A stretch of DNA of 64,000 nt from Vitreimonas sp. (GCA_035627515.1 DASPLQ010000012.1:1098331-1162330), one strand, 5' to 3'. Positions 2,427 through 50,183 are shown, counted from the stretch's first letter. Numbers and translations: made by a program. Notes: a model not told the origin generated them from the sequence alone.

Positions 2427-2432
2427 GAAATT

Positions 2433-3929: not shown

Positions 3930-3932
3930 GCT

Positions 3933-4793: not shown

Positions 4794-4938
4794 CATCACT
4801 TTAATTAACTAAAGTGTATCAAAAATGATGTACTTCTTTGTATTCTAAATTGCTTTCACAATTGTCAAAATGATGATGCACTAAATTAGATGTTTGTTGT
4901 TCTTTGTTATGAAATGACATAGGCAATTACCAAATAAT

Positions 4939-5676: not shown

Positions 5677-5694
5677 TACTAATAAGGAGGCAAA

Positions 5695-6612
5695 ATGCCT
5701 GAGAATGTATTAAATAACACAACTAACGCAGTTTTTATCCCAACTCTGATTGCTAACAAAGCTCTTGGACGTTTTTCTTCGTACTTAAACCTCGGTAAAA
5801 CCGTTGCTCGTAGTTCTGATTATGTGACTGCTCAAGTCGGTCAAGTAATTCAAGTTCCAAAGCGTGGTACTTTGAGTGCTAATGATAAAACCGCTGGTAA
5901 TGAATATACAAAGCAAAACCCAACTGCTACCAATGTAAGCGTTACCTTGAACAAGCATAAGGAAGTTACCATCGCCATCGATGACGTGACTAAAGTGTTA
6001 GAAAATCAAAATACTTTAGATGGTTACGCCGAAGACGCTGCTATTGCTTTAGCTGAGGCTGTTGAGGATGAATTGGCTTCATTGCACTCTTCATTAACCA
6101 ACACCGTCTCTTTTGATGCAACTTCCAGTGCTACTAAAAAGGCTTCTCTGTTAGCTCTCCGCAAACGTTTTGTAGACAACAAAGTACCTAAAGTAGAAAA
6201 CAAGTATCTCTATGTTGACCCTAGTGTCATGAATGAGTTACTTGAGGAAGCAGACTTCACTCAGCAACAAACCATCGGTCAAGCTCAAAACACCATCGAA
6301 GGTCGTGTTATGCGCTTATATGGTTTTGACATCTTTGAGTCTCAAAGTGTGAAACGATCTGGTTCTCCAGGTTCATTACACAACTTAGCTTACACTCGAG
6401 ATGCTTTCGTGTTGGCTTCCCGCCCATTACCTCAAGTTGGTCCTGGATTGGGTACAGTGTCAACTGTAGTGAATTCTGAAGATGTAGGTTTGAGTCTCCG
6501 TGTGAACATGCGCTATGACGGTTCAATTGGCGCTCACATCGTTACTTTAGACTTGCTCTTCGGTGTCGCTGTCTTAGACACTCGCCGAGTTGTTGAATTA
6601 GAGAGTTTCTAA
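5695..6612 (+). CDS. major capsid protein
   Basis: 305 aa, strong RBS (AGGAGG), follows the scaffold; followed by a GC-rich stem-loop at ~6640-6675. Confidence 0.7.
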   Translation: MPENVLNNTTNAVFIPTLIANKALGRFSSYLNLGKTVARSSDYVTAQVGQVIQVPKRGTLSANDKTAGNEYTKQNPTATNVSVTLNKHKEVTIAIDDVTKVLENQNTLDGYAEDAAIALAEAVEDELASLHSSLTNTVSFDATSSATKKASLLALRKRFVDNKVPKVENKYLYVDPSVMNELLEEADFTQQQTIGQAQNTIEGRVMRLYGFDIFESQSVKRSGSPGSLHNLAYTRDAFVLASRPLPQVGPGLGTVSTVVNSEDVGLSLRVNMRYDGSIGAHIVTLDLLFGVAVLDTRRVVELESF

Positions 6613-6689
6613 ACTCTTTAGTTAATTAAGCAAAAAAACCAGGGGGAGGGGTCCTTAAGTGGGCCCTTCCCCAGATAAATTAGGTAATT

Positions 6690-7910
6690 ATGATTTTAAA
6701 AAATCAAGGTGGTAGATTGGTCGAGATTGATAGCGAGAAAGAAGTTCAACAGCTACTCGCCACCCACCAATTCACCATCCCTACTCCTCAAGAACAAGAA
6801 GAATACCGAAAAGAAAAAGAATATCGCTATAAACTAATCACAGGCGTTATCCCTCACCCCGAAGAACAAACACCCGGCAACACAGACTACGAAGTTTACT
6901 TTAGTAGTGTCAATGAAAGTGCTGATGGCTATGGAATGAGTCGTCAACACATCAAGTCGGAGTTGCAAAAGTTGGGTGTGAAGATTTCCGAAGAGTTTAA
7001 ACACCAGAAAATAGGCTTTTTATACCACAGCCCCTATGCTGTTAAGCGTTTGGAGAACCCAATTAAAGTACTTTTCACAATGTTTGAGAGTGACAAGATT
7101 CCTGAAGACTGGGATGAATATTTGCGCCATGTTGACAAAATAATTGTTCCTTCTGAGTGGTGTGCTAATGTTTTCAGAAAAAGAGGATTTTATCCTGAGG
7201 TGGTTCCGTTAGGCTACAACACCAAAGCTTTCAACTACGTAGAGAGAAACGACAAAGAGAAAACGCATGAGCCATTTGTATTTCTCCATTACAACGCATT
7301 CAATCTGAGAAAAGGTTTTACTGAAGTGGCTAAAGCATTTATTAAAGAATTCCAACCTGACGAAAATGTAAAAATGATCTTCAAAACCACGTTGGAGCAT
7401 GCCCCGCTTCCGTTCCCACCCAGCAAATACCCGAATATAGAAGTGCAGTTAGGTAAGGTCAGCGATAAAGAGTTGGCAAAACTATGTGAGAAAGCGGACT
7501 GTTTTGTATTCCCGAGTAGAGGTGAGGGTTTCGGAATAACTCCTCTTGAAGCTATGGCTACTGGATGCAGTGCAATTGTGCCAAATGCCCATGGCATAAC
7601 TGAGTACTTTAATCCTGAGTATATGTACGAGGCCAAAGTTCGTGAAATGTGCCCGGCTGTCTATAGTCGCTACAAAGGCAGAGATGTTGGAAAAATGGTG
7701 ATTTGCGATGAAGATGACCTTGCAGCAAAAATGCGTTATGTAGTTAGCCACCTTGAGGAGTGTCGAGCAAAGGGGAAAGCAGCGTCAGAGTACGTCAAGA
7801 AATATAGTTATGAGGAAACGGCTACTAAGCTCAAGTTGATTTTTGACAACTTAGTCAAAAACAAGATCAAAGACTCGAATAGTAATCAAATTAAATTGGA
7901 GGAAATATGA
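6690..7910 (+). CDS. glycosyltransferase, GT4-type (GT-B fold)
   Basis: C-terminal signature FVFPSRGEGFGITPLEAMATGCSAIVP (E-x7-E motif of Glycos_transf_1). Confidence 0.7.
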   Translation: MILKNQGGRLVEIDSEKEVQQLLATHQFTIPTPQEQEEYRKEKEYRYKLITGVIPHPEEQTPGNTDYEVYFSSVNESADGYGMSRQHIKSELQKLGVKISEEFKHQKIGFLYHSPYAVKRLENPIKVLFTMFESDKIPEDWDEYLRHVDKIIVPSEWCANVFRKRGFYPEVVPLGYNTKAFNYVERNDKEKTHEPFVFLHYNAFNLRKGFTEVAKAFIKEFQPDENVKMIFKTTLEHAPLPFPPSKYPNIEVQLGKVSDKELAKLCEKADCFVFPSRGEGFGITPLEAMATGCSAIVPNAHGITEYFNPEYMYEAKVREMCPAVYSRYKGRDVGKMVICDEDDLAAKMRYVVSHLEECRAKGKAASEYVKKYSYEETATKLKLIFDNLVKNKIKDSNSNQIKLEEI

Positions 7911-8179
7911 AACCAATCGAGAAAACCACTGCTGTAGTTGTTGAAAATGCTAAAGAGAACAGTGTCCAAGAAAAGTTAGTTAAACAACGACCAAGATTCG
8001 CCTACATACACGTAGGCTGTTCGGGACATGCTTTTTATTTGCATGCCAAGCCAAGATCTGGAGAGCCCATCCAGGGCTTTGACTACGAAGGCAATCCATT
8101 AAAAGGTGAAGTTAAGTGTAAGAGTTGTGGTGCAAAAATGAGTCATTTTAAGACTGAAAATATTATTGAATTAAAATAA
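7907..8179 (+). CDS. small Cys/His-containing protein (possible zinc-binding), unknown function
   Basis: 90 aa, CSGH...CKSCGAKM pattern; translationally coupled between two GT genes. Confidence 0.3.
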   Translation: MKPIEKTTAVVVENAKENSVQEKLVKQRPRFAYIHVGCSGHAFYLHAKPRSGEPIQGFDYEGNPLKGEVKCKSCGAKMSHFKTENIIELK

Positions 8180-9318
8180 TGAGTCATACTAAAGCTCAAA
8201 AAACTGGCAAAATTGGTGTTAAATACACTGGTGCTTTTCTAGATTTCTCAGGATACGGAGAAGCTACTAGACATGACATTGGTGCGTTGCATGAAGCTGG
8301 AATAGCTATTCAAACGGAGTACGTCCATTTTACTCATGAGGTTGCTGATTATGGTCGATTGGGCTCGCTTTGCAAACGCCTGCAAAATATTTCTGAGAAT
8401 TACAGAATCAAAATTCTTCATCTCACTCCAAACATTTTTCCTCGTTTTAAAGAAGAGGGTTGTTACATGATTGGTAGGGTCTTCTGGGAAACCGACAAAT
8501 TGCCACCCGACTTTGCTCAAGGTTGTGAGGTTCTTGATGAAATATGGACTGGAAGCGAAACAAATAAAAAAGCGATTGTAAATGCAGGGGTAAATAAGCC
8601 AATCTTTATTATTCCTGAGGCTATTGAAACTACTGTTTTTCCTCCTGAACCATATCAGGAAAGTGTAATTAATGGAAAATTTGCTTTTTATTCTATTTTT
8701 GAGTGGACGACTAGAAAAAACCCCGATGCCCTTTTAAGAGCATATTTTCAAGAGTTTAATGAGCAGGACAATGTATGTCTCATGCTCAAAACCTATGTAG
8801 ATGACTTCACTTCTAACAAAAAGGATGAAATTAAAAGTGAAATAAAAGCTATTATTGCCAGCCTCAACCTCAGTTATCGACCGCCTATTTATTTATATAC
8901 AGACCTTATGGATCGGCATCAAGTGCATCGATTTCATGCTTCTGGTGACTGCTTTATCAGCACAACCAGAGGTGAAGGGTGGGGTGTTCCTCAAATGGAA
9001 GCTATGTTATTTGGAAAACCGGTTATCACTACGCAGTCAGGAGGAATTGCAGACTACTTAACACACGAGGAATCAGCACACATACTTCCTACCTTTCCCG
9101 AAAGAATCACTCACTCCTCGAGAAACTCACAGTGGTACCGCTCAGATCAGAATTGGAGTGGAGTTTTGATTAAAGATGTACGGGAAGCCATGAGAAAAAT
9201 TTACAGTGATGCTGAATACAGAAATAAAATCGCTGAAGGGGGTAATAAGCTTGTCAAAGAAAGATTTAGTCTCAGCGCTGTTGGTGAATTAATGAAATCT
9301 AGACTTGAGGAAATTTAA
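8179..9318 (+). CDS. glycosyltransferase, GT4-type (GT-B fold)
   Basis: FISTTRGEGWGVPQMEAMLFGKPVITT (E-x7-E motif). Confidence 0.7.
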   Translation: MSHTKAQKTGKIGVKYTGAFLDFSGYGEATRHDIGALHEAGIAIQTEYVHFTHEVADYGRLGSLCKRLQNISENYRIKILHLTPNIFPRFKEEGCYMIGRVFWETDKLPPDFAQGCEVLDEIWTGSETNKKAIVNAGVNKPIFIIPEAIETTVFPPEPYQESVINGKFAFYSIFEWTTRKNPDALLRAYFQEFNEQDNVCLMLKTYVDDFTSNKKDEIKSEIKAIIASLNLSYRPPIYLYTDLMDRHQVHRFHASGDCFISTTRGEGWGVPQMEAMLFGKPVITTQSGGIADYLTHEESAHILPTFPERITHSSRNSQWYRSDQNWSGVLIKDVREAMRKIYSDAEYRNKIAEGGNKLVKERFSLSAVGELMKSRLEEI

Positions 9319-9320
9319 AT

Positions 9321-10325
9321 ATGAAGATTTTATACATTTCATGCCATCAAGTGCTCGAATACGACGAAGTTAAGCTTTTTCATGAGCTGGGTTTTGACGT
9401 TTTTTCAACGGGAACCTATGCTTACCCCCACTTCCGACCGGGGATGATTCGCCCTGGTTTACCAGAACTTACTCACTATCCTGAGTTAGAACGATTGGCG
9501 AGTACGATTGTGAGTAGTGGCTATGCAATTCCCTCAGAGCTTATTGAATGGGCTGACACCATCATTTTCATGCATCTACCCGAAGCAATGGAAAAAAATT
9601 GGGAAAAACTGAGACATAAAAGAGTTATTTTTAGATCAATTGGTCAATGTGTTGCACATCAAGAGAGAATTCTGGCTAGGTTGGTAAAAGAAGGTCTTCA
9701 GATAGTACGTTACTCACCTATGGAACAGGAGTTACCGGATTTTGCTGGCTTGAACGCAACTATTCGCTTTTATAAAGATCCGAGCGAGTTTCGAGGTTAT
9801 ACAGGAGAAAATCCTCTAGTAATTAACTTTTCCCAATCAATTTTACAAAGGCAATCGGAGTGCCATTATCAAGAAATTAATCAGATCATGAGTGGTTTCG
9901 ATGCAAAAATATTTGGAACAGGAAACGAGAACTTGGGATCAATGAATGGGGGGCAGGTTTCGTATGAGGAAATGAAACGCCTAATGAGAGAAAGTAGGGC
10001 CTTTATATATGGCGGAACCTGGCCTGCACCCTACACTTTGTCATTAATTGAAGCAATGATGTCAGGAATTCCCGTCGTTGCTCTAGGGAAAAAACACGCA
10101 GAGCTTGATCGAGGACTAAGTTTTTATGAAGTTCATGACATTATACAAAACGGCGTGCACGGGTTTGTTTCCAACGACGTCAGTTACTTAAAGAGCCAGG
10201 TCGAATACTTAATCAACCACAAAGAGACAGCAATTAAGATTGGCGAGCAGGGGCGACAACGCGCAATTGAATTATTTGGCAAAGAAACTATTAAAAACCA
10301 ATGGGAGAGCTTTTTGAAAGGCTAA
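9321..10325 (+). CDS. glycosyltransferase-like protein (GT-B C-terminal domain, degenerate)
   Basis: FIYGGTWPAPYTLSLIEAMMSGIPVVALG resembles the GT4 nucleotide-sugar binding region but lacks the first Glu. Confidence 0.45.
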   Translation: MKILYISCHQVLEYDEVKLFHELGFDVFSTGTYAYPHFRPGMIRPGLPELTHYPELERLASTIVSSGYAIPSELIEWADTIIFMHLPEAMEKNWEKLRHKRVIFRSIGQCVAHQERILARLVKEGLQIVRYSPMEQELPDFAGLNATIRFYKDPSEFRGYTGENPLVINFSQSILQRQSECHYQEINQIMSGFDAKIFGTGNENLGSMNGGQVSYEEMKRLMRESRAFIYGGTWPAPYTLSLIEAMMSGIPVVALGKKHAELDRGLSFYEVHDIIQNGVHGFVSNDVSYLKSQVEYLINHKETAIKIGEQGRQRAIELFGKETIKNQWESFLKG

Positions 10326-10327
10326 TC

Positions 10328-11077
10328 ATGAAAGAACCAATTGTTGCCGGAGTAACCTACCAACTTATGCAAATGGATCCAGAACTGGCTTTATTTGATG
10401 AAGGAAAGTGGGGAGGAACAGAAAGTGAGTTTTTAGCTTTTAATGACGCTGGTGTCGAGATGGAGGTTGGAGAGTTCTTTTACTCGATGGTTCGACTGCT
10501 AAAACCCAATCGCGTACTGGAGACAGGAACACACTGGGGTATTGGAGCTATGTATATGGGTATGGCTCTCAAGCACAATCAAAAAGGGAAGCTAACTACT
10601 ATTGAGTTTTTGCCACCAATCTTCGAGAAGGCCAAGGCTCGAATCGAACAGTTGGGGTTAGGGGAATATGTTGAAAATCTGCTTCAAGATGTGGTAACTT
10701 ATCAGCCTACAGAGAAGTTTCAATTTATATTGTTAGACACTGAGCCACAAACCCGATTTGCGGAGATGGGAAAGTTTTGGGATTCGCTTGATGAAGGTGG
10801 GTTCTTATTTATCCATGATTTGCACCGTCACATGCACCAAATTCCTAATGATGAGCACGGTTTTGCTTGGCCATATGGTCTAGTTACAGACTTTATGCAC
10901 AACCTGGTAATAAATGGAAAAGCTCGACCAATTCATTTTTCAACTCCTCGAGGTCTAACGGGATTTTATAAAGTTAGTCAAGCAGATTACAACTGGAGTC
11001 GAAGTGTTGTCCAATCATCTGTTCCTGGTCACTACCATAGTGGAAATAACATATCTATTGAAAGCAGTAATGTCTAG
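10328..11077 (+). CDS. class I SAM-dependent O-methyltransferase (TylF/MycF macrocin-O-methyltransferase-like)
   Basis: Motif I VLETGTHWGIGAMYMG; ORF track start 10301 overlaps the upstream gene, ATG at 10328 follows its stop. Confidence 0.55.
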   Translation: MKEPIVAGVTYQLMQMDPELALFDEGKWGGTESEFLAFNDAGVEMEVGEFFYSMVRLLKPNRVLETGTHWGIGAMYMGMALKHNQKGKLTTIEFLPPIFEKAKARIEQLGLGEYVENLLQDVVTYQPTEKFQFILLDTEPQTRFAEMGKFWDSLDEGGFLFIHDLHRHMHQIPNDEHGFAWPYGLVTDFMHNLVINGKARPIHFSTPRGLTGFYKVSQADYNWSRSVVQSSVPGHYHSGNNISIESSNV

Positions 11078-12134
11078 AACTGCCCTACTCCCTTCTTCTG
11101 GCGATCCCTTCTTATTAACCTTCTGGTTTGGTCAGTTCCTAAAGGTGTGGCAAAACGAGGTAGATGAGTTGATTATTCATTTAAATGGGTATGCTGAGGC
11201 AGAGGTGGTCGAGTATGTTCGGCAGATGGTATTGTTGAGCCCCAAGGCAAAGTTTATACACACACCCTCAACAGTTACTCATGGAAATTCGATTGATCTT
11301 ATGTTGGATGAGGTAAAAACGGATTTAGTGGTTTTGCTTGAAGAAGATGCCCCAATATTTAAACCTGGAACCATTGACTACTGCTTTAAATACATAGAAG
11401 AACAAGGCTATGAAGTAGTGGGGTCTAAGCGAGGCAGCTGTGCGTTAGAGATCTTAGAGCGGGCAAAAGAAGTGTGGGGCTTGGACTACTCTGGTTATGG
11501 TGATCAGGGGTGCAATTTTTGGCCTTGTTTTCTCTTCACTAAAACCCAAATTTTAAAAGATACTGACAGGAATTTTGACAGTAAACAATGGAAGGCTGGA
11601 ACCTATATTCCCGAGCTTGATTGGACCACTTCTACCGATGTACACGGCGACACCTTCGTTAATACTTCGCTACAACTTCGTGCGAAGAAATGCCGAATAA
11701 AAGAAATCCCACAATATCACTGTTATACCGACGACATGCCAGACTATGAAAAGAAAATGGGGATTTATGATGGTTATGCCCCATGGGTTCACATTGGTTC
11801 TCTCTCAAGTTGTTTTAATGGAGCTTTGGTTGATGATACCAATAGGGCACTGGGTAGAAGATTGGTTGAAGCACCCAAATCGGACTACCCTCTCCAGGCA
11901 AATACGGTAGGGGAGAAGCAAGAGTGGGAAAGAAGATTGGTTTGGCTTTCTATTGCATATTCGGGTTTTCACTCAAACGATTATTTAAGCAAAGAAACCA
12001 AAGACATTCTCAAAGTATTTTCAATTGAGTACGGAAATGCGCTAGAAAAAGCAGTCAGATATTTAGGACTAAATAAGGAGAGGATGTTCCAAAGAATGAA
12101 GATTTACTTGGAATTACTTAATAAATATGTTTGA
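11070..12134 (+). CDS. hypothetical protein in glycosylation cassette (possible glycosyltransferase)
   Basis: ~355 aa, 8-nt overlaps with both neighbours; no motif recognised by eye; ORF-track start 11004 replaced by in-frame ATG 11070. Confidence 0.35.
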   Translation: MSRTALLPSSGDPFLLTFWFGQFLKVWQNEVDELIIHLNGYAEAEVVEYVRQMVLLSPKAKFIHTPSTVTHGNSIDLMLDEVKTDLVVLLEEDAPIFKPGTIDYCFKYIEEQGYEVVGSKRGSCALEILERAKEVWGLDYSGYGDQGCNFWPCFLFTKTQILKDTDRNFDSKQWKAGTYIPELDWTTSTDVHGDTFVNTSLQLRAKKCRIKEIPQYHCYTDDMPDYEKKMGIYDGYAPWVHIGSLSSCFNGALVDDTNRALGRRLVEAPKSDYPLQANTVGEKQEWERRLVWLSIAYSGFHSNDYLSKETKDILKVFSIEYGNALEKAVRYLGLNKERMFQRMKIYLELLNKYV

Positions 12135-12837
12135 CCTCATCGTCACCTGGCCAACCCACTGCGATTATCCTATTTTCAGAAAGTTAATTAGAGAAAATAG
12201 AAAACGATTTGGAGAAGTAATCATCACATTTAGTGATGCAAACAATATCTTTAATAGAGTTGACTTTGTGAAGCAAACAATGAAAAAAGATGATGTTACT
12301 TTCTTGCGAGCTAACTCTAGGGGTGGTGATTGGAGAAATGAAGCAATTCAAGAATCTCTAAAAGAGAGTCAATCCAAGTGGGTTTTGTTTATTGAACAAG
12401 ATTTTATTATCCATAAGCCAGAGCAGTTTTTCTTCAATCTTAATATTGAAATGCCTAAATACGATGTTATTGGTTTTAAAGAAGGAGAGAGATTGCACCC
12501 TGGTTTCTTGTTAATTAGAAGAGAGTGCTTAAATCAGACCTGTCTAGATTTCGGGATAGTACCCAACAAACTTGATCATTTTGGTCTGATAACAAAAGAC
12601 ATTACTCGCCTTGGATTTAAGGTTGGGCTACTTGACGACTTAGGCCTTGAGAGAAAGAAGCACTATTATCACATGAATGGTTTGAGTCACAACCTAACTC
12701 TTATGCAGCAAGGCGAAAAAGTTACCTATCAGCCGGATATGTTCTTAAGTTACCTAAGAAGTTGTGCTCAAGCTGGCATCGAGCTTCCCAGCGACTTCTT
12801 TTTGTACTATCACCGTATGAAAGAAACAAATGCTTAA
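12127..12837 (+). CDS. hypothetical protein in glycosylation cassette (possible GT-A-like)
   Basis: 236 aa; VLFIEQDFII acidic motif reminiscent of a GT-A DxD region; overlapping start/stop coupling. Confidence 0.3.
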   Translation: MFDLIVTWPTHCDYPIFRKLIRENRKRFGEVIITFSDANNIFNRVDFVKQTMKKDDVTFLRANSRGGDWRNEAIQESLKESQSKWVLFIEQDFIIHKPEQFFFNLNIEMPKYDVIGFKEGERLHPGFLLIRRECLNQTCLDFGIVPNKLDHFGLITKDITRLGFKVGLLDDLGLERKKHYYHMNGLSHNLTLMQQGEKVTYQPDMFLSYLRSCAQAGIELPSDFFLYYHRMKETNA

Positions 12838-13924
12838 AGTTTTTGCCGACTTTCATCACGCATCCCTATTACACTCGCTGATCATGGTTTTTGAGGGTAG
12901 ATTTGGTGGTGAGTTATATCGACCAATAGGGATTGAGTGGGCTGAAAAAGGATTTTGGAAAGTATTCGACCACCCTGCTACTCAACAACAGTATTTGGCA
13001 ATCGGCGGCGCGACACCAGATGGAACTAAACCTCTCAACGAAGTAGAAAGCTCAGAGGCCTGGTCAAATAGGATCCCATCTGATCATGTGTACCATTGCA
13101 AAGATATTGATAGTGGTTTTACCAATAAAGCGATCACATTTGATGGCTTTATGTCAATGCCATTTGACTTTGTGATTGCTTCACTACCTCAACACATTGA
13201 ACCATTTCGTAAGCTTTGTGACCTACATCCTAGCAAACCAAAGCTTATTTATCAAATTGGAAATCAATGGAATATTGAACCCCACTTCGCTCACATGATT
13301 AATGGAGTAATGGCATCTGCTCAAGTTGTTCACAATTACCCCGTAAGAACTATTCAATACCATCAAGAGTTTGACCTCAAAACCTTTTACCCACATAAAT
13401 TTGAGGGCACTAATGAGATACCCAAGGAAAAAACAGCTTACAGTTTCATTAACGTACATCAAGACATGCCAGACTACAGTCTCTTTCTCTCCTTAGAGGC
13501 AAGTAGACCAGACTGGAATTTTAAAACTTATGGGGGTCAATGCAGAGACGGATCGATGGATGGCAGTGAGCAGCTGGCTAACAAAATGAGAGAGGCGATG
13601 TTCATTTGGCACGTTAAAGCAGGTGGAGATGGGTATGGTCATGTTTTATACAATGCAGCTGCTATAGGCAGGCCTGTTATTGTTAAAAAATCATACTACT
13701 CTGGCAAACTAGGTGAAGAACTATTAATTGATGGTAAAACGTGCATTGATGTTGACGGTCTAAATTTAGACCAGATTTGGTCTAAGCTAGACCATTATAG
13801 TCAACCTGAGCAGTACATAGCTATGAATGAAAATGTGATTAGTAACTTTAAAGAGAAAGTAAATTTTGATTCAGACGCCCTGAAAATCAAGTCATTTTTA
13901 GATAATTTGTTAGAAATCTATTAA
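12830..13924 (+). CDS. hypothetical protein, possible GT-B-like glycosyltransferase
   Basis: 364 aa; C-terminal GGDGYGHVLYNAAAIGRPVIV resembles a GT-B sugar-nucleotide binding segment. Confidence 0.3.
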   Translation: MLKVFADFHHASLLHSLIMVFEGRFGGELYRPIGIEWAEKGFWKVFDHPATQQQYLAIGGATPDGTKPLNEVESSEAWSNRIPSDHVYHCKDIDSGFTNKAITFDGFMSMPFDFVIASLPQHIEPFRKLCDLHPSKPKLIYQIGNQWNIEPHFAHMINGVMASAQVVHNYPVRTIQYHQEFDLKTFYPHKFEGTNEIPKEKTAYSFINVHQDMPDYSLFLSLEASRPDWNFKTYGGQCRDGSMDGSEQLANKMREAMFIWHVKAGGDGYGHVLYNAAAIGRPVIVKKSYYSGKLGEELLIDGKTCIDVDGLNLDQIWSKLDHYSQPEQYIAMNENVISNFKEKVNFDSDALKIKSFLDNLLEIY

Positions 13925-14054
13925 TTTGCCCAAAACTCCCTTTTTTTGCTAAAGATTGCCAAGGTTTGCGAAATTTCTTTAGCTATCTCCTGTTGCTAAA
14001 CTTATTTTAATGAAACCTTGTGTTGAAGTATTCAATAGGTAAAAGGTAAAAAAT

Positions 14055-14606
14055 ATGGCAGCAACATTCGCATTCGACAGAGATCACGGTACACAAACTG
14101 GCTCACCTACTCGTGGAACCACTACTAGCGCTGGTGTTACTGACGTAAACTGGAAGAATTCCGACACAGAAGCAACTGCGTACTCCGCTGCCCCGATCAC
14201 TGCAGGTAACAACTCTTATGATAATTGGCTTTTTGGTCATTTCTCTGGTACTTACAACCAAATCTCAGCGGGACTTTGGGCTCACACCGCAACGGCATTT
14301 GGTACAGGATTAACTCTAAAGAGCACTCCAGCTTGCACTGGCGATGGTGACCGCTTACTGTATACAACTCCCTCTGCTTCAGCTAACGCTAACTTAACCG
14401 TCGATGCCACCTCAGCAATTGCCATTGGGTCGGGAGTAGCAGTATTTTTCGGCGCAACTGGTCCCTATGCTACAGGCAAAGCCTCTTCAACGACTTCAAA
14501 CCCAGCGTACACCAACTATCTGACTACTCAATTGCAAACATCGGGTAGTGCAGCAGCTGGTGATACAGCAACCGTCACCATGACTTTGCAATACAACGAA
14601 AACTAA
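14055..14606 (+). CDS. Thr/Ser/Ala/Gly-rich virion structural protein (decoration or minor capsid protein candidate)
   Basis: 183 aa, very low complexity in hydroxyl residues (TTTSAGVTD, KASSTTSNPAYTNYLTTQLQTSGSAAAGDTATVTMTL); preceded by the conserved intergenic motif. Confidence 0.4.
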   Translation: MAATFAFDRDHGTQTGSPTRGTTTSAGVTDVNWKNSDTEATAYSAAPITAGNNSYDNWLFGHFSGTYNQISAGLWAHTATAFGTGLTLKSTPACTGDGDRLLYTTPSASANANLTVDATSAIAIGSGVAVFFGATGPYATGKASSTTSNPAYTNYLTTQLQTSGSAAAGDTATVTMTLQYNEN

Positions 14607-14613
14607 GGAATAT

Positions 14614-14853
14614 ATGGAAAAACTAATCTTTAACGCTCAACTCCAAAAAGAAACCACTCACACTCTTGAGGTTGACGATAACAACGAAATTGTAGCTACC
14701 TGCACTGAAACAGGCCGACAACTGAAATTCCCTAACGTTTCTGAAGCAGAATTTGATGTTTTGGTTGCCAAACATAATGAGTCTAATGTTGGTCAAAGAG
14801 CAAAGAAACCTTTATTTGGAGGTGCTACTGAGGAAGCTTCTCAACCCGAATAA
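14614..14853 (+). CDS. hypothetical phage protein
   Basis: 79-aa ORF with RBS GGAA; position only. Confidence 0.35.
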   Translation: MEKLIFNAQLQKETTHTLEVDDNNEIVATCTETGRQLKFPNVSEAEFDVLVAKHNESNVGQRAKKPLFGGATEEASQPE

Positions 14854-14925
14854 CATGCTTGAAGGCTTATCAAAAGGCGTTTAGTCAAAAACACATCGCA
14901 ATGCAATGCGAGAAAGCCCAATACA

Positions 14926-15393
14926 ATGGCAACACAATTCGGTGATAAAAAACTCAAACTTAAATATCTTTTCACAGCATTTTTTGAAGATGGTCATGTC
15001 ATAAGTCAAACTCCGGAAGATGTTTCAACAATAGATCCAGAAAAAAGATCCGCTTTTTTTGATGTACTTGAGTATGAAAAAAAATCAAAATTGATGGCAT
15101 TTAACTTACTTAATCCTGTGCTTAAAGAATATATTGAAGTGAATTTGAATACAGGCGAATTTGATGTTCACGGCATAAAAATCAATATTGCAGATCAAAA
15201 CTTCGAACCCACCGAACCATTAAGACTTGTTTACTTTCGAGAAACTCGTATCGAAAGCGATGTAAAGATGATAGCTGGTCAAAAAGATGATTTATTGGCT
15301 CAAAGGTTTTACGTTAATAATTACTTCATTGGATGGCAAACCACCGTAGATGGTAAGAATGTTCAACGGACTATTGCGTTAGGCGGTACATGA
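14926..15393 (+). CDS. hypothetical phage structural protein
   Basis: 155 aa; overlaps the start of the next gene (ATGA). Confidence 0.35.
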   Translation: MATQFGDKKLKLKYLFTAFFEDGHVISQTPEDVSTIDPEKRSAFFDVLEYEKKSKLMAFNLLNPVLKEYIEVNLNTGEFDVHGIKINIADQNFEPTEPLRLVYFRETRIESDVKMIAGQKDDLLAQRFYVNNYFIGWQTTVDGKNVQRTIALGGT

Positions 15394-17855
15394 AGCAAGT
15401 AGCCACTGGAAGAAACGGGAATAACCTTGTAAATAACGCCACACGTTATAACCCTCTATTTTTTCCCGACCTTCAGTCAGGTTATTCAGCAACCGCTACA
15501 GACTTTGAACAGATCATCCCTTCTACTGGAAAACTTAGAAATCTTAAAGTAAAGATAGATGCAGTTGCTGGCGCAGCTAAAAGCTACACATTCACTGTTA
15601 TGGTTAATGGCGTTGCTTCTTCATTGGCGGTAACCATTTCTGGAGCAACCGACACAAGGGGGTTAGACACTGACGAAATTTCTGTCAGTGCCGGCGATCG
15701 TGTCAACCTTCGAACTACTGCTTCTGGTACCCCTACAGCCACCCCTTCCTCGTGGTCGGTTGAGTATGAATCTGACACCGCACAAAGATTTATAGTTATG
15801 GGTGCATCAGGGGGAAACGTAGATGCGGCTGGCACAAGATATAATGCTCTTTTTCCCCGTCAAAACATTTGGCAGTCTGCCTCCACGACTTATCTTGTAA
15901 GATCTGTAGCCCCTATTGAGGCTACTATTAAATCTTTCTATGTCAATTTAAATGGATCTCCAGGGGCGGGAAAGAGCTATGCAATTTCTATTATGAAGAA
16001 CAACTCGGAAGAGGCTTCTTCAATTGTAACAATTGCCGATGCTGCTACATCTGGAAATGTCACTGGTTTGAGCATCAACGTGGCTCGGGGAGACTATTTC
16101 ACAATAAAGGTAACACCTACGGGCACTCCAACTGCTCGTCAAGTAAGATGGGGTGTTGAATTTCAGCCCGACACTGATGGTGAAAGTTTTATTTCCTCTT
16201 CTACAGATCACTCTTTTGGCACCGACCACTATGCGGGTATGGGAAGTGTTCCCAATGATGGTGGCACTGAAAGTCAAGTCAAGGGTATCGTAGGACCAAC
16301 AGCATACGTAATCAAAGATTTGTACGTTAAATTGTTACTGGCCCCAGGTGCGAGTAAGAGCACCGACGTTTATTTTCGCGTTAATGGATCAAGCACTGCT
16401 CTGTCAGCTTCCATAAGTGGCACCAACACCGTGGGTGAAGACACTACCGACGAAATTACGCCTGCAGAAAACGATGAAATAAACTTTTTCATTGACAACG
16501 TGAATACACCAGCCCACTCGGGTGAGTTAATGAGTGTAATTCAATATATTGCTCCTGGCGGAGGTGATGTCACAACACCTCAAACAATTACAGGTAAAGC
16601 TAGGATAGAGAAAGCGGTAAGTCAAACCGTGACAGGTAAGGCGAGAATTCAAAAAGCAGTAACTCAGACTATTGCCGGTCTAGCCAGAATCACTACCTCG
16701 GTTGCTAGAACTATTAATGGTGTGGCAAACATCAACAATAATACTTTACAAACCATCACTGGCAAGGCGAGGGTTCAGAAGGCAGTAACCCAGACAATTC
16801 AGGGCATAGCCCGCATCACAGTTTCCACCCTCCAAACTATTCAAGGTAAAGCTTCAATTCTTAAATCAACCACCCAGAATGTCCAAGGGGTCGCTCGAAT
16901 TGAAAAAAATGTTACACAGATTGTCCAAGGTGTAAGTCGTATTCAAAAAGCAGTGACGCAAACAATCCAGGGTGTAGCGCGAATCACCGCGTCAGCCTCT
17001 CAAGTCATTCAGGGAAAAGCACGAATCACGGCAAGTACAAGTCAAACGATGCAAGGCAAAGCCAGTATCTTAAAGTCAGTTTCTCGCACTATTGATGGTG
17101 TTGCTTCGATCGTAGCTGGTGCTACTCGTGATATTACAGGTGTGGCCCGCATCACTGCTTCAACTCTTCGCACGGTTACTGGTAAAGCATCGATTCTCAA
17201 AGCTGTCACACAAACGATTCAAGGAACTGCCCGGATTCAAAAGTCAGTTACTCAAACAGTACAGGGCGTTGCCCGGATTGCCAAAGATGTAACCCAAACA
17301 ATTACGGGCAAATCAAGAATTGAAAAGAGCGTGGCACAAACCGTGACGGGCTTAGCTCGAATTGAGAAAGCCGTCACTCAGCTAATTACGGGCTTAGCTC
17401 GAATCACGGCAAGTACAAGTCAAGCGATTCAGGGTAAGGCCCGTATTGAAAAATCAGTAACCCAAACAATTACAGGAAAATCACGCGTTGAAAAATCCAC
17501 AGCGCAGAACATTGTGGGTGTCTCTCGATTACAAAAGGCTGTCAGTCAATTAATTACGGGCTTAGCCAGAATTCAAACCACTCCTACCCAAACCATTCAG
17601 GGGACTTCCCGAATTGAAAAGTCTCAGAGCCAGATCATAACTGGTGTCTCAAAAATTTCTGCTGTTGTTCAAAGAACAATCACGGGTAAAGCTTCCGTTT
17701 TGTCACCTTACCAAACCCAAACTATCTCTGGCAAAGCATACATTTTGAAAAGACGTTGGAACCTCAAGAGGGTTGTAACATGGTATAGTAAAAATACACC
17801 TATTTGGTCTATCAAAACTAATCAAATCTGGTACAAAAGGAGCACAACAGAATAA
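15390..17855 (+). CDS. large repeat-containing fiber/decoration protein (3 tandem ~115-aa domains + ~26 x 15-aa repeats)
   Basis: 821 aa; three paralogous N-terminal domains each ending in ...TPTGTPTA...W..E..D; C-terminal array of xTQTIxGxARIxKxV 15-mers from about nt 16566 to 17760. Confidence 0.6.
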   Translation: MKQVATGRNGNNLVNNATRYNPLFFPDLQSGYSATATDFEQIIPSTGKLRNLKVKIDAVAGAAKSYTFTVMVNGVASSLAVTISGATDTRGLDTDEISVSAGDRVNLRTTASGTPTATPSSWSVEYESDTAQRFIVMGASGGNVDAAGTRYNALFPRQNIWQSASTTYLVRSVAPIEATIKSFYVNLNGSPGAGKSYAISIMKNNSEEASSIVTIADAATSGNVTGLSINVARGDYFTIKVTPTGTPTARQVRWGVEFQPDTDGESFISSSTDHSFGTDHYAGMGSVPNDGGTESQVKGIVGPTAYVIKDLYVKLLLAPGASKSTDVYFRVNGSSTALSASISGTNTVGEDTTDEITPAENDEINFFIDNVNTPAHSGELMSVIQYIAPGGGDVTTPQTITGKARIEKAVSQTVTGKARIQKAVTQTIAGLARITTSVARTINGVANINNNTLQTITGKARVQKAVTQTIQGIARITVSTLQTIQGKASILKSTTQNVQGVARIEKNVTQIVQGVSRIQKAVTQTIQGVARITASASQVIQGKARITASTSQTMQGKASILKSVSRTIDGVASIVAGATRDITGVARITASTLRTVTGKASILKAVTQTIQGTARIQKSVTQTVQGVARIAKDVTQTITGKSRIEKSVAQTVTGLARIEKAVTQLITGLARITASTSQAIQGKARIEKSVTQTITGKSRVEKSTAQNIVGVSRLQKAVSQLITGLARIQTTPTQTIQGTSRIEKSQSQIITGVSKISAVVQRTITGKASVLSPYQTQTISGKAYILKRRWNLKRVVTWYSKNTPIWSIKTNQIWYKRSTTE

Positions 17856-17859
17856 CTAT

Positions 17860-18555
17860 ATGTCATCACGTCGTCAATATTTAGCACAATCAGAACTCGT
17901 AGAGTTCGCAAACATCACCATCGAAGATGCCACAGAGGCCGATGATCAGATTTCTCAAGCGGAAGAGTTAATCGATTCCTATGTTGGTTTTGTCCAACCA
18001 TTTTTTTGCGGAAAATTAGAGGGTAAAGCTTTTGCGGGATCAGCAACATCTATTACTCTAGAGAGTGTTCACCAAAATGCGTATGATGACAATTACTTCA
18101 CCTATTGTTTCGTTGAAATCATTGGTGGGACAGGTGCGGGTCAAAGACAAAAAATTACTGCTTCAACTAAGGCAGGAGTACTAACTACAGAGACATTTTC
18201 AACCCCACCAGACAGTACTTCATTTTATCGTATTTTTCAGTTGGGTAAGTTTCCTCGAGAGAAAGATGTGACTTCCTACAATCGAACAGCACCTACAACT
18301 TACTATAAGAGTATTCCTGAGGCAGTTAAGAGAGCAACTGCCGCACAAGTTGAATATAAGATTGAAATGGGAGAAAAGTTCTTCTCTACAGACTCTAGCG
18401 ACAAAACATCAGAAAGTTTGGGTGACTATTCCTACACTAAAGAGGGTCGTGGTGATCAGGGAATTGGTAATAAATTAATAGCACCTAAGGCAAGAAACTT
18501 ACTCAGAGGATTAGTCGTTAGATTTGGACAATTTGATCTAGAAAACACCATATGA
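17860..18555 (+). CDS. head-tail connector / DNA-packaging gp6-like protein (putative)
   Basis: 231 aa, first gene of the head-tail joining block; position-based. Confidence 0.35.
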   Translation: MSSRRQYLAQSELVEFANITIEDATEADDQISQAEELIDSYVGFVQPFFCGKLEGKAFAGSATSITLESVHQNAYDDNYFTYCFVEIIGGTGAGQRQKITASTKAGVLTTETFSTPPDSTSFYRIFQLGKFPREKDVTSYNRTAPTTYYKSIPEAVKRATAAQVEYKIEMGEKFFSTDSSDKTSESLGDYSYTKEGRGDQGIGNKLIAPKARNLLRGLVVRFGQFDLENTI

Positions 18556-18869
18556 TAAGCCAACTTCAGAACCAGACTGTTACTTTATATTCTAAATCCA
18601 GTTTAGATCGGTATGGTCGTGAAGCGTTTGGAGCAACTAGAACATACAAGGTAAGAATACAAGAAGTTTCTAAATCAAAATTCCTTGGGAACGGCCAAGT
18701 TGTACCAGTTCTTGCAATTGCCTATTTTGCTCCCGAGGTCACAATTAATGTTGATGATCGAGTGGATTACGGAAGCAATAACTATAAAGTATTTGGGAAA
18801 AATGTAGCCTATGGGGCTGACGGAACAGCTCATCACATTAAAGTGGAATTAATCAAATGGCAAATGTAA
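18552..18869 (+). CDS. head-tail adaptor / head closure protein (putative)
   Basis: 105 aa, overlapping coupling; canonical position. Confidence 0.3.
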   Translation: MISQLQNQTVTLYSKSSLDRYGREAFGATRTYKVRIQEVSKSKFLGNGQVVPVLAIAYFAPEVTINVDDRVDYGSNNYKVFGKNVAYGADGTAHHIKVELIKWQM

Positions 18870-19213
18870 ATTTAGACATTAGTGACTTTTTGAAAAAATC
18901 AGGAGACTTGCTGAACAAAGTTATTAAAAGCAGTCCTGAAGCTCTTGAGGTGGTTGCTGATGAGATATTACGACTTTCCCAAAGAGAAGTTCCTCACGAT
19001 GAGGGTGGTCTCCAGAACAGCGGACATGTAGAACCGAGAAGTGAGGAGGTGTTGGTGGGTTACAACAAACCCTATGCTGCTCGGCTACATGAACATCCAG
19101 AATATAACTTCCAAAAAGGAAGAAAAGGGAAATATCTTGAGGATCCAATTAAAAACAATTTAAATATTTTTAGAATGATGTTCTCTCAAGATTTATCAGG
19201 AGCATTTAAATGA
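18857..19213 (+). CDS. head-tail joining protein (HK97 gp10-like, putative)
   Basis: 118 aa; canonical position. Confidence 0.3.
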   Translation: MANVNLDISDFLKKSGDLLNKVIKSSPEALEVVADEILRLSQREVPHDEGGLQNSGHVEPRSEEVLVGYNKPYAARLHEHPEYNFQKGRKGKYLEDPIKNNLNIFRMMFSQDLSGAFK

Positions 19214-19593
19214 GTAGTTTGATAACTGATATTGTCGATTATTTAGATGACCAGGGCATTGGAACCACAGGTACTAATTTATTTGAAGGCTATATTCCTG
19301 ACGCACCAGATACTTGTATTGCTGTGCTGAATACCGGTGGAACCAGGCCTGATCCAGACATTCCTACTAAGTCACCAACCTTTCAGGTATTTATTAGAGC
19401 AACAAGTTTCGCAGCGGGACAATCTAGATTAGACCAGGTGCGAGAAGCTCTTCATAGACAGTCAAATATAGAGTTTGTTACTGACGAAACCTATGTTTAC
19501 TACGTTTTAGCACTTGCAGAGGGCGGTCATGTGGGTAGAGATGAAAATGGAAGAGATTTATTTAGTATTAATTTTAAGGCACTCACCAGATGA
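19210..19593 (+). CDS. tail completion / tail terminator protein (putative)
   Basis: 127 aa; canonical position before the tail tube gene. Confidence 0.3.
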   Translation: MSSLITDIVDYLDDQGIGTTGTNLFEGYIPDAPDTCIAVLNTGGTRPDPDIPTKSPTFQVFIRATSFAAGQSRLDQVREALHRQSNIEFVTDETYVYYVLALAEGGHVGRDENGRDLFSINFKALTR

Positions 19594-19829
19594 TAGAAGA
19601 AGTAAAAAAATTCTATCGTGAGTTACGATGCAAAAATTGCCGGCGCCTACTGGCACAAGAATACCTTCTTGATGGTCGCATCGAAATTAAATGTGGAGCG
19701 TGCAACAGTATTAACTCTTTTGACTTCAAGCATTTGAAGCAATTAAAGAAAAAAAATACTGTGATCGTGCTGGAGAAGAACCCGGGTCTTCCCCAGAATA
19801 CAACTAGTCGGGAGAAAGGAAAAAAATAA
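19590..19829 (+). CDS. zinc-ribbon protein (Com-like CxxC...CxxC)
   Basis: 79 aa, CKNCRRLL...CGACNS four-Cys ribbon followed by a basic tail. Confidence 0.45.
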   Translation: MIEEVKKFYRELRCKNCRRLLAQEYLLDGRIEIKCGACNSINSFDFKHLKQLKKKNTVIVLEKNPGLPQNTTSREKGKK

Positions 19830-29891: not shown

Positions 29892-30071
29892 ATGAAAATA
29901 CTTCCTCCCCAAACCATGGTTAAATTACAGCACTTAGTGGGTTATTTCCCGTGTGCCTGGTGCATAAGTGAAAGATACAGGAAAATCAGCAATAAACTTA
30001 AAATGAGCCATGGAATCTGTGAAAAATGCGCACACGAACATTTCTATTCCTTACTTGATACAAGCCCATAG
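29892..30071 (+). CDS. small zinc-ribbon protein (59 aa; CAWC...CEKC), not in ORF track
   Basis: ATG 29892 to TAG 30069-30071; two CxxC pairs; tail-to-tail overlap (21 nt) with the integrase 3' end. Confidence 0.3.
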   Translation: MKILPPQTMVKLQHLVGYFPCAWCISERYRKISNKLKMSHGICEKCAHEHFYSLLDTSP

Positions 30072-50102: not shown

Positions 50103-50178
50103 TGGAGCCAAGAAGGGGGCTCGAACCCCTGACCTGCGGTTTACGATACCGCTGCTCTACCAGCTGAGCTATCTTGGC
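50103..50178 (-). tRNA. tRNA-Thr (anticodon CGT), CCA encoded
   Basis: Manual cloverleaf: acceptor GCCAAGA/TCTTGGC, anticodon stem GCGGT/ACCGC, loop ATCGTAA, T-arm AGGGG-TTCGAGC-CCCCT. Confidence 0.8.
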
Positions 50179-50183
50179 TTGGG

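Follow-up and report, generated by a model that had tools for sequence, protein, structure and literature searches.

An eight-gene glycosyltransferase cassette behind the capsid gene of a Patescibacteria siphovirus prophage, a candidate system for virion glycosylation

The window, the whole stretch of 64,000 nucleotides that was analysed (assembly GCA_035627515.1), lies across an integrase-bearing siphovirus prophage of about 38.4 kb in a 1.41 Mb Patescibacteria (CPR) genome. Capsid, cassette, IleRS and FtsW genes have consecutive accessions on a single contig of 1,409,795 bp, and a second assembly (1,409,690 bp) contains the same phage-host junction. An independent contig of the same phage (38,366 bp) ends 272 nt past the integrase gene. 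The six closest relatives of IleRS that bear a phylum-level name all belong to Patescibacteria groups (67-72% identity), and the NCBI label Vitreimonas is wrong for the host. A contig shared by phage and housekeeping genes, with an integrase where they meet and a host marker closest to CPR sequences, identifies the element as an integrated prophage of a Patescibacteria host.

The early region of the prophage encodes a replication initiator, a DnaQ-like exonuclease and HTH proteins. The late genes run from terminase, portal, minor capsid protein, scaffold and a P22-like major capsid protein to the cassette, followed by Ser/Thr-rich and repeat proteins, head-tail adaptors, the major tail protein and the tape measure. 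Features and their coordinates are listed in the table.

Table. Features of the cassette and its surroundings (positions counted from the first nucleotide of the window)
Feature	Position	Strand	Evidence and remarks
Major capsid protein (P22-coat-like HK97 fold)	5695..6612	+	Pfam P22_CoatProtein 1.1e-18, Phage_capsid_2 6.8e-7; directly before the cassette
Post-capsid GC-rich hairpin, 12 bp	6643..6672	+	RNA fold -27.6 kcal/mol, z -2.4; 17 nt before c1 start
c1, GT4 (GT-B) glycosyltransferase	6690..7910	+	Pfam Glycos_transf_1 1.7e-15 (57.4 bits), Glyco_trans_1_4 1.1e-11; PHROG 2170 glycosyltransferase 2.1e-35
c2, 90-aa zinc-ribbon-like protein	7907..8179	+	CSGH aa 38-41, CKSC aa 71-74
c3, GT4 (GT-B) glycosyltransferase	8179..9318	+	Pfam Glycos_transf_1 1e-11 (45.1 bits); PHROG 2170 1.8e-24
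c4, divergent GT-B/GT4-like glycosyltransferase	9321..10325	+	Pfam Glycos_transf_1 1.4e-6 (28.4 bits), Glyco_trans_1_2 1.1e-5
c5, class I SAM-dependent methyltransferase, family-3 / Methyltransf_24 O-methyltransferase type	10301..11077 (alternative start 10328)	+	Pfam Methyltransf_24 9e-9, Methyltransf_3 5.2e-5
c6, GT-A-like glycosyltransferase, paralogue of c7	11070..12134	+	hhalign c6 family vs c7 family 91.5% probability, E 8.8e-7
c7, GT-A fold (GT2-like) glycosyltransferase	12127..12837	+	invariant DWR (aa 68-70), E-Q-D (aa 90-92)
c8, fourth GT-B glycosyltransferase	12830..13924	+	family without Pfam model; GGDGYGH aa 265-271
Optional insert d1-d4	14055..17855	+	no Pfam or PHROG function
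Head-tail adaptor, head-closure and connector genes	17860..19593	+	PHROG 541 head-tail adaptor 1.8e-12, PHROG 793 2.6e-5, PHROG 2595 connector 5e-15; downstream bound of the block
Tyrosine integrase	30051..31082	-	Pfam Phage_integrase 8.9e-31; prophage end, host genes begin just past it

The cassette consists of eight genes on the + strand, namely six glycosyltransferases, one methyltransferase and one small zinc-ribbon-like protein. From c1 to c8 the junctions measure -4, -1, +2, -25, -8, -8 and -8 nt; the -25 nt overlap of c4 and c5 becomes +2 nt if c5 starts at ATG 10328, the start used by NCBI. A preliminary description of this DNA had reported a seven-gene cassette of co-directional, coupled genes within the late structural operon. 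Its open reading frames, their common strand, the tight junctions (-25 to +2 nt) and the position between the capsid gene and the head-tail adaptor and tail genes were all recovered, but the genes number eight, as do those in the list of the description itself. The GC fraction of the cassette is 0.401 (prophage 0.403). No transmembrane segment above threshold was detected in c1-c8; the cassette lacks membrane components, and its pathway would be fully cytoplasmic.

The products of c1, c3 and c4 match Pfam Glycos_transf_1 above its gathering cut-off of 26.4 bits, in agreement with the three GT4/GT-B enzymes named earlier. The E-x7-E motif announced for two enzymes was located in c1 (EGFGITPLE, aa 279-287, nt 7524-7550) and c3 (EGWGVPQME, aa 266-274, nt 8974-9000) and occurs in these two only; c4, with 42-60% identity to its counterparts in relatives, retains the second Glu alone (LSLIEAM, aa 240-246). 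The product of c8 had no Pfam match and was previously an unknown with weak GT-like features; its two Rossmann-like domains superpose on known GT-B enzymes, which makes it a GT-B glycosyltransferase by fold. From its sequence, D-x7-N was read at the place equivalent to E-x7-E, and among viral proteins its fold is closest to giant-virus GT1/CgeB-like enzymes.

The other two earlier unknowns are c7, a GT-A enzyme, and its paralogue c6. Each folds as a single Rossmann-like domain in which strand 4 is followed by an acidic DxD-type motif. In c6 an invariant L-x-E-x-D (LLEEDA, aa 89-94) is accompanied by an additional C-terminal half. Against Pfam Glycos_transf_2, c6 gave a weak hit (0.0025; 18.2 bits, below the cut-off of 23.3) and c7 none, and the c6 sequence had no match in PDB. 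Both are GT-A by fold and lie outside the Pfam GT2 family as modelled; with c8 they constitute three glycosyltransferase families without a Pfam model.

The methyltransferase c5 (249 aa in the NCBI annotation) exceeds the cut-offs of Methyltransf_24 (36.6 vs 26.3 bits) and Methyltransf_3 (23.1 vs 22 bits) and matches PCMT weakly. It carries the SAM-binding glycine-rich motif (LETG, aa 73-76) and has as nearest PDB entries family-3 (cation-dependent) O-methyltransferases (e.g. 8c9v at 2e-5). Neither TylF (PF05711) among the Pfam matches nor MycF/TylF among the PDB matches was found; the O-methyltransferase of the preliminary description therefore stands, together with its several glycosyltransferases and their late-operon position, but not its TylF/MycF type. 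The substrate of c5 is presumably a sugar hydroxyl. The small Cys/His protein, c2, has no match in Pfam or PHROG and proved to be a family-conserved zinc ribbon: in about 22 of 24 relatives c1 and c3 are separated by a small homologous ORF that encodes CxxC...CxxC, the window having CxxH...CxxC.

Related metagenomic loci were defined by a capsid identity of at least 40%. Whether homologous phages carry the same insert at the same site had been raised as a check, and c1 lies directly after the capsid gene in all 33 of these loci; the full gene set recurs in the same order in nine of the ten loci with at least 8.5 kb downstream, and viral contigs have the same capsid-cassette pattern. Divergence of the cassette parallels that of capsid and portal (Mantel r 0.58-0.88; capsid vs portal 0.76). 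It is a vertically inherited core module of this phage family. Relatives with 40-44% capsid identity keep the site, occupied instead by a fused GT4-GT2-GT4 protein and a methyltransferase; in L104 and L106 the fusion is a single protein of 971-987 aa. Variable accessory tailoring genes also occur in relatives (GT8, a CmcI-type sugar O-methyltransferase, an extra GT4 beside a collagen-like fibre). Among 211 ORFs of the cassette region in 35 loci no multi-pass membrane protein was found; hydrophobic segments, one or two per ORF, occurred in just three small ORFs (66-120 aa), and the 35 loci contain no priming phosphoglycosyltransferase, flippase, polymerase or ligase.

In three relatives the cassette adjoins the head-tail adaptor directly (33-275 nt), and thus the ancestral order is capsid-cassette-adaptor. 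The insert d1-d4 is missing in L060, L082 and L090 and is replaced in L055 and L059 by collagen-like or 1506-aa proteins. In the window, d1 has 183 aa with 28% Ser+Thr, d2 79 aa, d3 155 aa, and d4 821 aa, in which a 14-aa repeat occurs about 27 times. All four are presumed head decoration or fibre proteins and might be extra glycan acceptors, but since they are optional in the family the Ser/Thr-rich proteins cannot be the conserved target. The major capsid protein is a candidate acceptor; it is 53-65% identical among family members, in which Ser/Thr patches and a C-terminal E-x-E-S(-F) are invariant, and its sequence has no obvious Ser/Thr-rich tail.

The hairpin after the capsid gene is followed in relatives by a U run, forming an intrinsic terminator at the same place in six of six checked. 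An own promoter of the cassette is unlikely because only 17 nt here, and about 25-70 nt in relatives, separate this element from c1. A consensus scan for promoters and terminators gave background levels without excess, and CPR promoters may differ from the consensus. In relatives, the terminator before the cassette could point to late expression that is regulated and not constitutive.

Capsid linkage in 33/33 loci, co-divergence, the lack of room for a promoter and the absence of membrane, flippase or polymerase proteins favour a virion-linked role. Virion-protein glycosylation, also proposed in the preliminary description and partly supported here, is the best reading of the cassette, and we would give it an even chance. 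In this reading the cassette would be the core glycan-assembly module, with predicted late expression, of a large siphovirus family of about 38-42 kb. Late transcription would read through the hairpin or terminator, so that the eight products would be less abundant than the capsid protein. The four GT-B (GT4-like) and two GT-A (GT2-like) transferases would draw on host nucleotide sugars and assemble an oligosaccharide stepwise in the cytoplasm on virion proteins, probably O-linked to Ser/Thr, the likeliest acceptors being the major capsid protein and, where present, head fibres or decoration proteins. A sugar would be O-methylated by the family-3-type enzyme c5, c2 may serve as an accessory, perhaps an adaptor, and the progeny would leave with a glycan coat. 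As the same block recurs at this site in dozens of uncultured relatives, such sugar-coating would be its most likely purpose. With slightly less assurance than an even chance, we propose that a capsid (and head-fibre) glycan coat is ancestral and universal in this large uncultured CPR/Patescibacteria siphovirus family, produced by a dedicated viral cytoplasmic pathway with three profile-less glycosyltransferase families (c6, c7, c8) and a zinc-ribbon cofactor.

The enzymes might instead serve the host envelope, as auxiliary metabolic or lysogenic conversion genes. The soluble transferases would then extend or alter a lipid- or wall-linked host glycan by way of a host priming enzyme, flippase and ligase, a role that we hold to be unlikely though far from negligible; the effect, to be given no more weight, would be changed adhesion to the partner of the CPR cell or a block of superinfection or progeny trapping. 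The phage is temperate, with an integrase, and integrated in a 1.41 Mb genome, the best structural matches of the cassette enzymes include lipid-linked or wall-glycan enzymes (PimA, WlaC, WbnH, TarP, RmlT), and a host surface-glycan locus near the prophage, at 44.7-49.3 kb, encodes a flippase, a Wzy-like protein, PMT_2 and GT2. Surveys of CPR/DPANN viruses find glycosyltransferases common and, in their passages on these genes, treat them as scattered host-helping auxiliary metabolic genes, with modification of the host surface as the usual reading; the same passages, on the same host group and gene class, describe neither a multi-gene capsid-adaptor cassette nor virion glycosylation (PMC11310336; PMC12911398). 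Against a host target stands the lack of all export and priming components in the 35 cassettes, and the site between capsid and adaptor, not near att/int, offers no promoter room and no GC difference. Unlike exchangeable morons, the cassette is found universally and has diverged in step with the structural module, and homologues of c6 and c8 have so far appeared on phage-sized rather than cellular contigs. Conversion modules such as Gtr clusters and the S. aureus prophage TarP have 1-3 genes and membrane proteins (GtrA/GtrB/GtrC); they occupy accessory sites close to att or tail-fibre genes, have a patchy distribution and are expressed during lysogeny. Nothing of the kind was seen here, where a Gtr/O-antigen-type module would have shown membrane components and a patchy accessory locus with its own promoter and terminator. 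All conversion modules known to us are far smaller than seven or eight genes, which also counts against this reading.

Another cytoplasmic target (host proteins, in takeover or anti-defence, a non-structural phage protein or a small molecule) would suit the solubility of all the enzymes, and the C-terminal part of c1 alone passes the Pfam model 'GT4 in conflict systems' (39.8 bits). Effector-type glycosylation normally adds one sugar, whereas six transferases and a methyltransferase imply a multi-sugar product; the placement in the morphogenesis operon, not among early genes, and the strict capsid linkage even in distant relatives with different enzyme architecture further make such a target improbable. 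As for DNA hypermodification, with sugars added T-even style to hydroxymethylated phage bases against restriction, the relevant fold matches come after those to ordinary GT4 enzymes and result from the GT-B fold that they have in common. No T-even-type partner enzyme (dCMP/dUMP hydroxymethylase, TET/JBP), thymidylate-synthase-like or DNA polymerase gene was found in about 35.7 of 38.4 kb (the prophage in the window plus 4.6 kb upstream), and we know of no DNA glycosylation pathway that reaches six transferases and a sugar methyltransferase. Modification of DNA is accordingly very improbable.

To our knowledge, phage particle glycosylation has been demonstrated so far only in mycobacteriophages, where it is treated as a curiosity tied to antibody recognition. 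If virion glycosylation by the cassette is true, it would be the first such system outside actinobacteriophages and would make the process a widespread environmental phenomenon with an evolutionary origin unrelated to mammalian immunity. Sugar-coated particles would matter in groundwater and freshwater phage ecology beyond antibody shielding, for example in particle stability, adhesion to the partner cell of the episymbiotic host, or evasion of grazing or defence, and CPR-phage glycosyltransferases scored as auxiliary metabolic genes in virome surveys would need re-reading. If the host surface is remodelled instead, the cassette would be an unusually large core-encoded conversion system bearing on episymbiont-partner attachment. 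The locus contributes three glycosyltransferase families hitherto unannotated and, for a Patescibacteria genome, one of the rare firm links between phage and host; its enzyme set is much larger than that of mycobacteriophages and stays with the capsid gene throughout a whole family, whose hosts belong to the bacterial radiation that is least understood.

Among eukaryotic giant viruses, chlorovirus PBCV-1 likewise encodes several soluble transferases and a sugar O-methyltransferase, a host-independent machinery that there acts on the major capsid protein; its A064R has two rhamnosyltransferase domains and a methyltransferase domain and its A111/114R three transferase domains (PMC7826918), multidomain enzymes that the fusions of L104 and L106 beside a methyltransferase resemble. 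Its atypical glycans are N-linked, however, its genes are scattered in a 330 kb genome (PMC7826918) and there is no sequence relationship. The fibril clusters of Megavirinae (mimivirus type) share the clustering of viral glycosyltransferases and target capsid-attached fibrils (PMC10117803; PMC9614988); in some of the phage relatives the cassette is immediately followed by genes for collagen-like or very long fibres and by an additional GT4. In contrast, the giant-virus clusters also encode nucleotide-sugar synthesis, which is lacking in the window cassette but present in L057 and L058, and fibres are optional in the phage family.

The precedent among phages is virion glycosylation in mycobacteriophages (Che8/Cluster F1, Corndog-type Cluster O; Freeman et al. 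2023, as summarised in PMC11600133 and PMC11256854): in Cluster O an O-methyltransferase and three tandem glycosyltransferases modify capsid and tail tube (PMC11600133). Common to both are a siphovirus, tandem phage glycosyltransferases with an O-methyltransferase, and cytoplasmic enzymes without export machinery, an O-linked glycan on capsid and tail proteins being the proposed product. The host is a member of the Patescibacteria here and of the Actinobacteria there; this cassette has eight genes and six transferases, three of them (c6, c7, c8) without a Pfam model, and a fixed capsid-adaptor site, whereas in F1 phages the genes are situated towards the right end of the genome (PMC11256854). 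No homology to characterised enzymes of mycobacteriophages was found: among 50,697 GenBank phage records, c6 and c8 had no match, and c1 (tblastn, E<=1e-5) had none in Mycobacterium phages and matched glycosyltransferases of Streptomyces and Rhodococcus phages and archaeal viruses at 23-27% identity.

The cassette was found to consist of eight co-directional ORFs, designated c1 to c8, and not of the seven genes counted in the preliminary description, whose placement of the block between the capsid gene and the decoration and tail genes was correct, since structural genes flank it on both sides. The junctions from c1 to c8 are -4, -1, +2, -25, -8, -8 and -8 nt, and that of c4/c5 turns from -25 to +2 with the c5 ATG at 10328, the start in the NCBI model. 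The base composition of the cassette was the same as that of the remaining phage.

Positions of the prophage and host features and of the related loci discussed in the text
Sequence	Feature	Position	Strand	Remarks
Window	Small-terminase-like gene, large terminase, SPP1-type portal, minor capsid protein 2, scaffold			Upstream of cassette
Window	P22-coat-like major capsid protein	5695-6612		Directly upstream of cassette
Window	Hairpin	6643-6672		Strong, 12 bp, GC-rich; directly after capsid gene, 17 nt upstream of c1 start
Window	Cassette, c1 to c8	6690-13924	+	Eight ORFs
Window	d1	14055-14606		183 aa, 28% Ser+Thr; unannotated
Window	d2, d3			Between d1 and d4; unannotated
Window	d4	15390-17855		821 aa, about 27 copies of a 14-residue repeat; unannotated
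Window	Head-tail adaptors	from 17860		Then connector proteins, Ig-domain major tail protein, chaperones
Window	Tape measure, tail fibre proteins, M23 peptidase			After chaperones
Window	d18, tail-fibre-like protein	26296-27570		PHROG 5795 at 3e-32; 25 histidines, 29% Ser+Thr
Window	Tyrosine integrase	30051-31082	-
Window	Host part	31400-64000		About 42% GC
Window	IleRS	34342-37164
Window	Host surface-polysaccharide locus	44714-49299		13 kb from prophage; Polysacc_synt_3 flippase, PMT_2 family glycosyltransferase, GT2, Wzy_C-like protein
Window	Host tRNA-Thr and tRNA-Gly	50103-50255
Window	Host family X (pol beta-like) DNA polymerase	53200-54219		Adjoins tRNA-Asp
L104	GT4-GT2-GT4 fusion	3671-6634		987 aa
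L106	GT4-GT2-GT4 fusion	6019-8934		971 aa
L055	Genes between c8 and adaptor	11134-16273
L022	d1 homologue	19077-19628
L057	Cassette copy	1685-11038		IMGVR_UViG_3300012359_000030; 53-kb viral contig
L058	Cassette homologues in larger sugar island	3708-18215		IMGVR_UViG_3300014656_002088

The cassette encodes six transferases (four GT-B and two GT-A), an enzyme of the O-methyltransferase type, and a zinc-ribbon protein. All eight proteins are soluble, as no transmembrane-like segment was detected in any of c1 to c8. Proteins c1 and c3 were clear GT4 members (Pfam Glycos_transf_1, 1.7e-15 and 1e-11; PHROG 2170, 2e-35 and 2e-24, respectively) with E-x7-E motifs at residues 279-287 and 266-274, and c4 was a divergent Glycos_transf_1 member barely over the Pfam cut-off; the three GT4/GT-B transferases, two of them with this motif, that had been read from the sequence alone were thus recovered. 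Protein c5 was a class I SAM methyltransferase of the Methyltransf_24/Methyltransf_3 kind, with family-3 O-methyltransferases as nearest solved structures; the Pfam search gave no TylF signal, and therefore the TylF/MycF-type assignment made earlier is not supported. Across its N-terminal ~170 residues c6 is paralogous to c7 (hhalign 91.5%, E 8.8e-7); in addition, it shows an invariant E-x-D and matches Pfam GT2 below threshold. Protein c2 is a small zinc ribbon: about 22 of 24 relatives have a homologous CxxC...CxxC ORF in the interval from c1 to c3, and the version in the window is CxxH...CxxC with an insertion. PHROGs and NCBIfam assigned no function to c2, c6, c7, c8, d1 or d3.

Relatives with 53-65% identical capsids were obtained by capsid-based and c8-based scans of IMG/VR, and a capsid-profile scan of JGI metagenomes gave further such relatives and a few distant ones at 30-44%. 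One relative, L084, comes from the 0.1 um fraction of Hainich groundwater. The presence of the insert at the same position in homologous phages, a check suggested in the preliminary description, was confirmed. In every one of the 33 loci that had a capsid identity of at least 40% and no less than 600 nt of sequence downstream, the next gene was c1, at a distance of 70-687 nt from the capsid gene. Where the downstream sequence reached at least 8.5 kb (ten loci), c1, c3, c4, c5, c6, c7 and c8 were present in the same order in nine. Duplicates, in which one phage was recovered from several samples or collections, inflate these counts. Pairwise divergence values of c1, c3, c4 and c5 were correlated with those of capsid and portal (Mantel r 0.58-0.88, p<=0.0005; capsid versus portal, r = 0.76), statistics likewise inflated by duplicates in the set. 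The sole exception in gene order, L104, and its sibling L106, with capsid identities of 40-44%, carry a compact version at the same site, in which a GT4-GT2-GT4 fusion replaces the separate genes and is followed by a methyltransferase-domain protein (365 and 376 aa, respectively) and then directly by the adaptor.

For c8, 551 homologues were found, and among the 119 matches listed besides the window's own, all contigs were of 42.5 kb or less, many of 38-42 kb. Neither c6 nor c8 had a match in 50,697 GenBank phage records, and megablast of positions 5600-14700 against GenBank phages gave none. The nearest cultured capsid relatives were Gordonia phages (28% identity), in which the adaptor directly follows the capsid gene without an insert; c1 homologues of Streptomyces phages are located outside the capsid-adaptor interval. 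As judged from its distribution, synteny and co-divergence among relatives, the cassette belongs to the core of an uncultured phage family, in which it is old and has been inherited vertically, and is not a recent insertion.

Cassette homologues were also present on two further viral contigs. L057 contains c4, c5, duplicated c6, duplicated c7 and c8, together with a second methyltransferase and an NDP-sugar epimerase/dehydratase, and no capsid gene was recognisable within 10 kb. In L058, c3, c4 and two c8 homologues are part of a larger sugar island, together with an intein-containing GT9, an intein-containing GDP-mannose 4,6-dehydratase, a DegT aminotransferase, a sulfotransferase and a Gfo/Idh/MocA oxidoreductase.

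Downstream of c8, the relatives differ in their Ser/Thr-rich and fibrous genes. In L060, L082 and L090 the adaptor begins 33-275 nt past c8, without d1-d4, which were for that reason rejected as the conserved acceptor. A 1506-aa protein follows c8 in L059 and a Ser/Thr-rich protein of at least 636 aa in L018. The corresponding region of L055 encodes a collagen-repeat protein (737 aa, many G-x-T triplets, Pfam Collagen 1.4e-32), a Ser/Thr-rich protein of 601 aa and an additional GT4; there is a resemblance here to BclA and other collagen-like surface proteins that are glycosylated. The relatives differ in accessory tailoring genes too: L059 carries a GT8, and L060 a sugar O-methyltransferase of the CmcI type. 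Since the genes adjoining c8 are variable and absent in three loci, the ancestral order, as reconstructed from these loci, is capsid-cassette-adaptor, with optional fibres added behind.

The protein d1 shares 90.7% identity (~80% at DNA level, the differences being mostly synonymous) with its L022 homologue, while the flanking genes share only ~31-55% protein identity, a pattern that suggests separate (mosaic) exchange of this decoration-type gene. The repeats of d4, at residues ~397-775, are in tandem with a consensus near TQTIxGxARIxKxV, and TRF detected no tandem repeat at DNA level; d4 is probably a head or neck fibre.

A hairpin with a U-tract was present at the same place, ~25-70 nt before c1, in the six relatives checked (L018, L020, L022, L023, L055 and L059); unlike these canonical terminators, the window hairpin has no U run. 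Partial terminators are commonly found behind capsid genes, and the post-capsid hairpin looks like one of them. There is little room for a separate cassette promoter. From the hairpin and the short gap to c1 we infer that late transcription continues into the cassette at a reduced level. A scan for sigma-70 consensus promoters and for terminators gave nothing over background, although CPR promoters may not match that consensus.

The capsid gene, the cassette, IleRS and FtsW are encoded by consecutive accessions on a single 1,409,795-bp contig, and a second assembly (1,409,690 bp) has the same integrase-host junction. In public databases the organism is recorded as 'Vitreimonas sp.' ('MAG TPA'), an alphaproteobacterial genus, and this label was rejected: IleRS was 67-72% identical to proteins of the Patescibacteria group, Paceibacterota, Woesebacteria, Pacebacteria and others on contigs of 1.1-1.4 Mb. 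On the basis of this affinity, the 42% GC and a gene content typical of small genomes, the MAG is mislabelled and the host is a CPR bacterium, linked to the phage by one integrated copy. A 38,366-bp contig of an identical phage from a separate read set (L063, Logan contig SRR7003767_52849) ends 272 nt past the integrase, and therefore the prophage size is ~38.4 kb; this contig suggests an excised or free phage form, or a prophage-free strain in that sample. With the capsid protein as query, a scan of genome contigs yielded no further host links, since all matches were to distant capsids of the Prevotella type (26-46% identity over parts of 59-143 residues).

Glycosylation of virion proteins is the best-supported reading, to which we give about an even chance: late in infection, the enzymes of the cassette would build up a partly O-methylated oligosaccharide on structural proteins of the phage while these are in the cytoplasm. 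It is favoured because linkage to the capsid gene is strict and ancient, the cassette co-diverges with the morphogenesis genes, the capsid-adaptor site persists despite a different enzyme architecture, membrane proteins for priming, flipping, polymerising or ligating a glycan are wholly absent in 35 cassettes, and base composition is that of the rest of the phage. Direct precedent is given by Cluster O mycobacteriophages, whose capsid and tail tube are modified by three tandem transferases together with an O-methyltransferase (PMC11600133); the window cassette is similar in pairing an O-methyltransferase-type enzyme with tandem transferases. A further functional analogue is A064R of chlorovirus PBCV-1, with two rhamnosyltransferase domains and a methyltransferase finishing the capsid glycan (PMC7826918).

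Remodelling of the host envelope is rather unlikely, although this is a temperate phage, enzymes acting on lipid- or wall-linked glycans are numerous among the structural neighbours of c7 and c8, the host has its surface-glycan locus at 44.7-49.3 kb, and CPR-phage glycosyltransferases were read in this way in virome surveys (PMC11310336, PMC12911398). Arguing against it are the absence of membrane components, a position inside the late operon, the occurrence of the cassette throughout the family, and the size of the module. Soluble enzymes could act on some other acceptor in the cytoplasm, for instance host proteins or a small molecule, but this is improbable given the poor fit to a multi-enzyme pathway and the placement in a morphogenesis operon. 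The T4 glucosyltransferases among the GT-B structural matches would point to DNA glycosylation, which we consider very improbable: they rank below ordinary GT4 enzymes, no hydroxymethylase, TET or polymerase gene was found in ~35.7 of the 38.4 kb of phage, and the early region comprises a replication initiator, a DnaQ-like exonuclease and HTH proteins.

Glycosyltransferases of CPR viruses were recorded in bulk in the same surveys, and virion glycosylation is established for mycobacteriophages (PMC11256854, PMC11600133). The literature, as far as it was covered, contained no account of CPR phages with a multi-enzyme cassette conserved between the capsid and adaptor genes, nor any of glycosylated virions outside the actinobacteriophages.

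If the conserved acceptor is a virion protein, it should be a core protein, the candidates being the capsid protein and the major tail protein, and the fibres would be additional putative targets. Reading of the sequences revealed no common motif in the C-termini of capsid and major tail proteins. The capsid protein has the invariant Ser/Thr patches NNTTNA, KQNPTATNVSVTL and TFDATS, and an invariant C-terminal E-x-E-S(-F).
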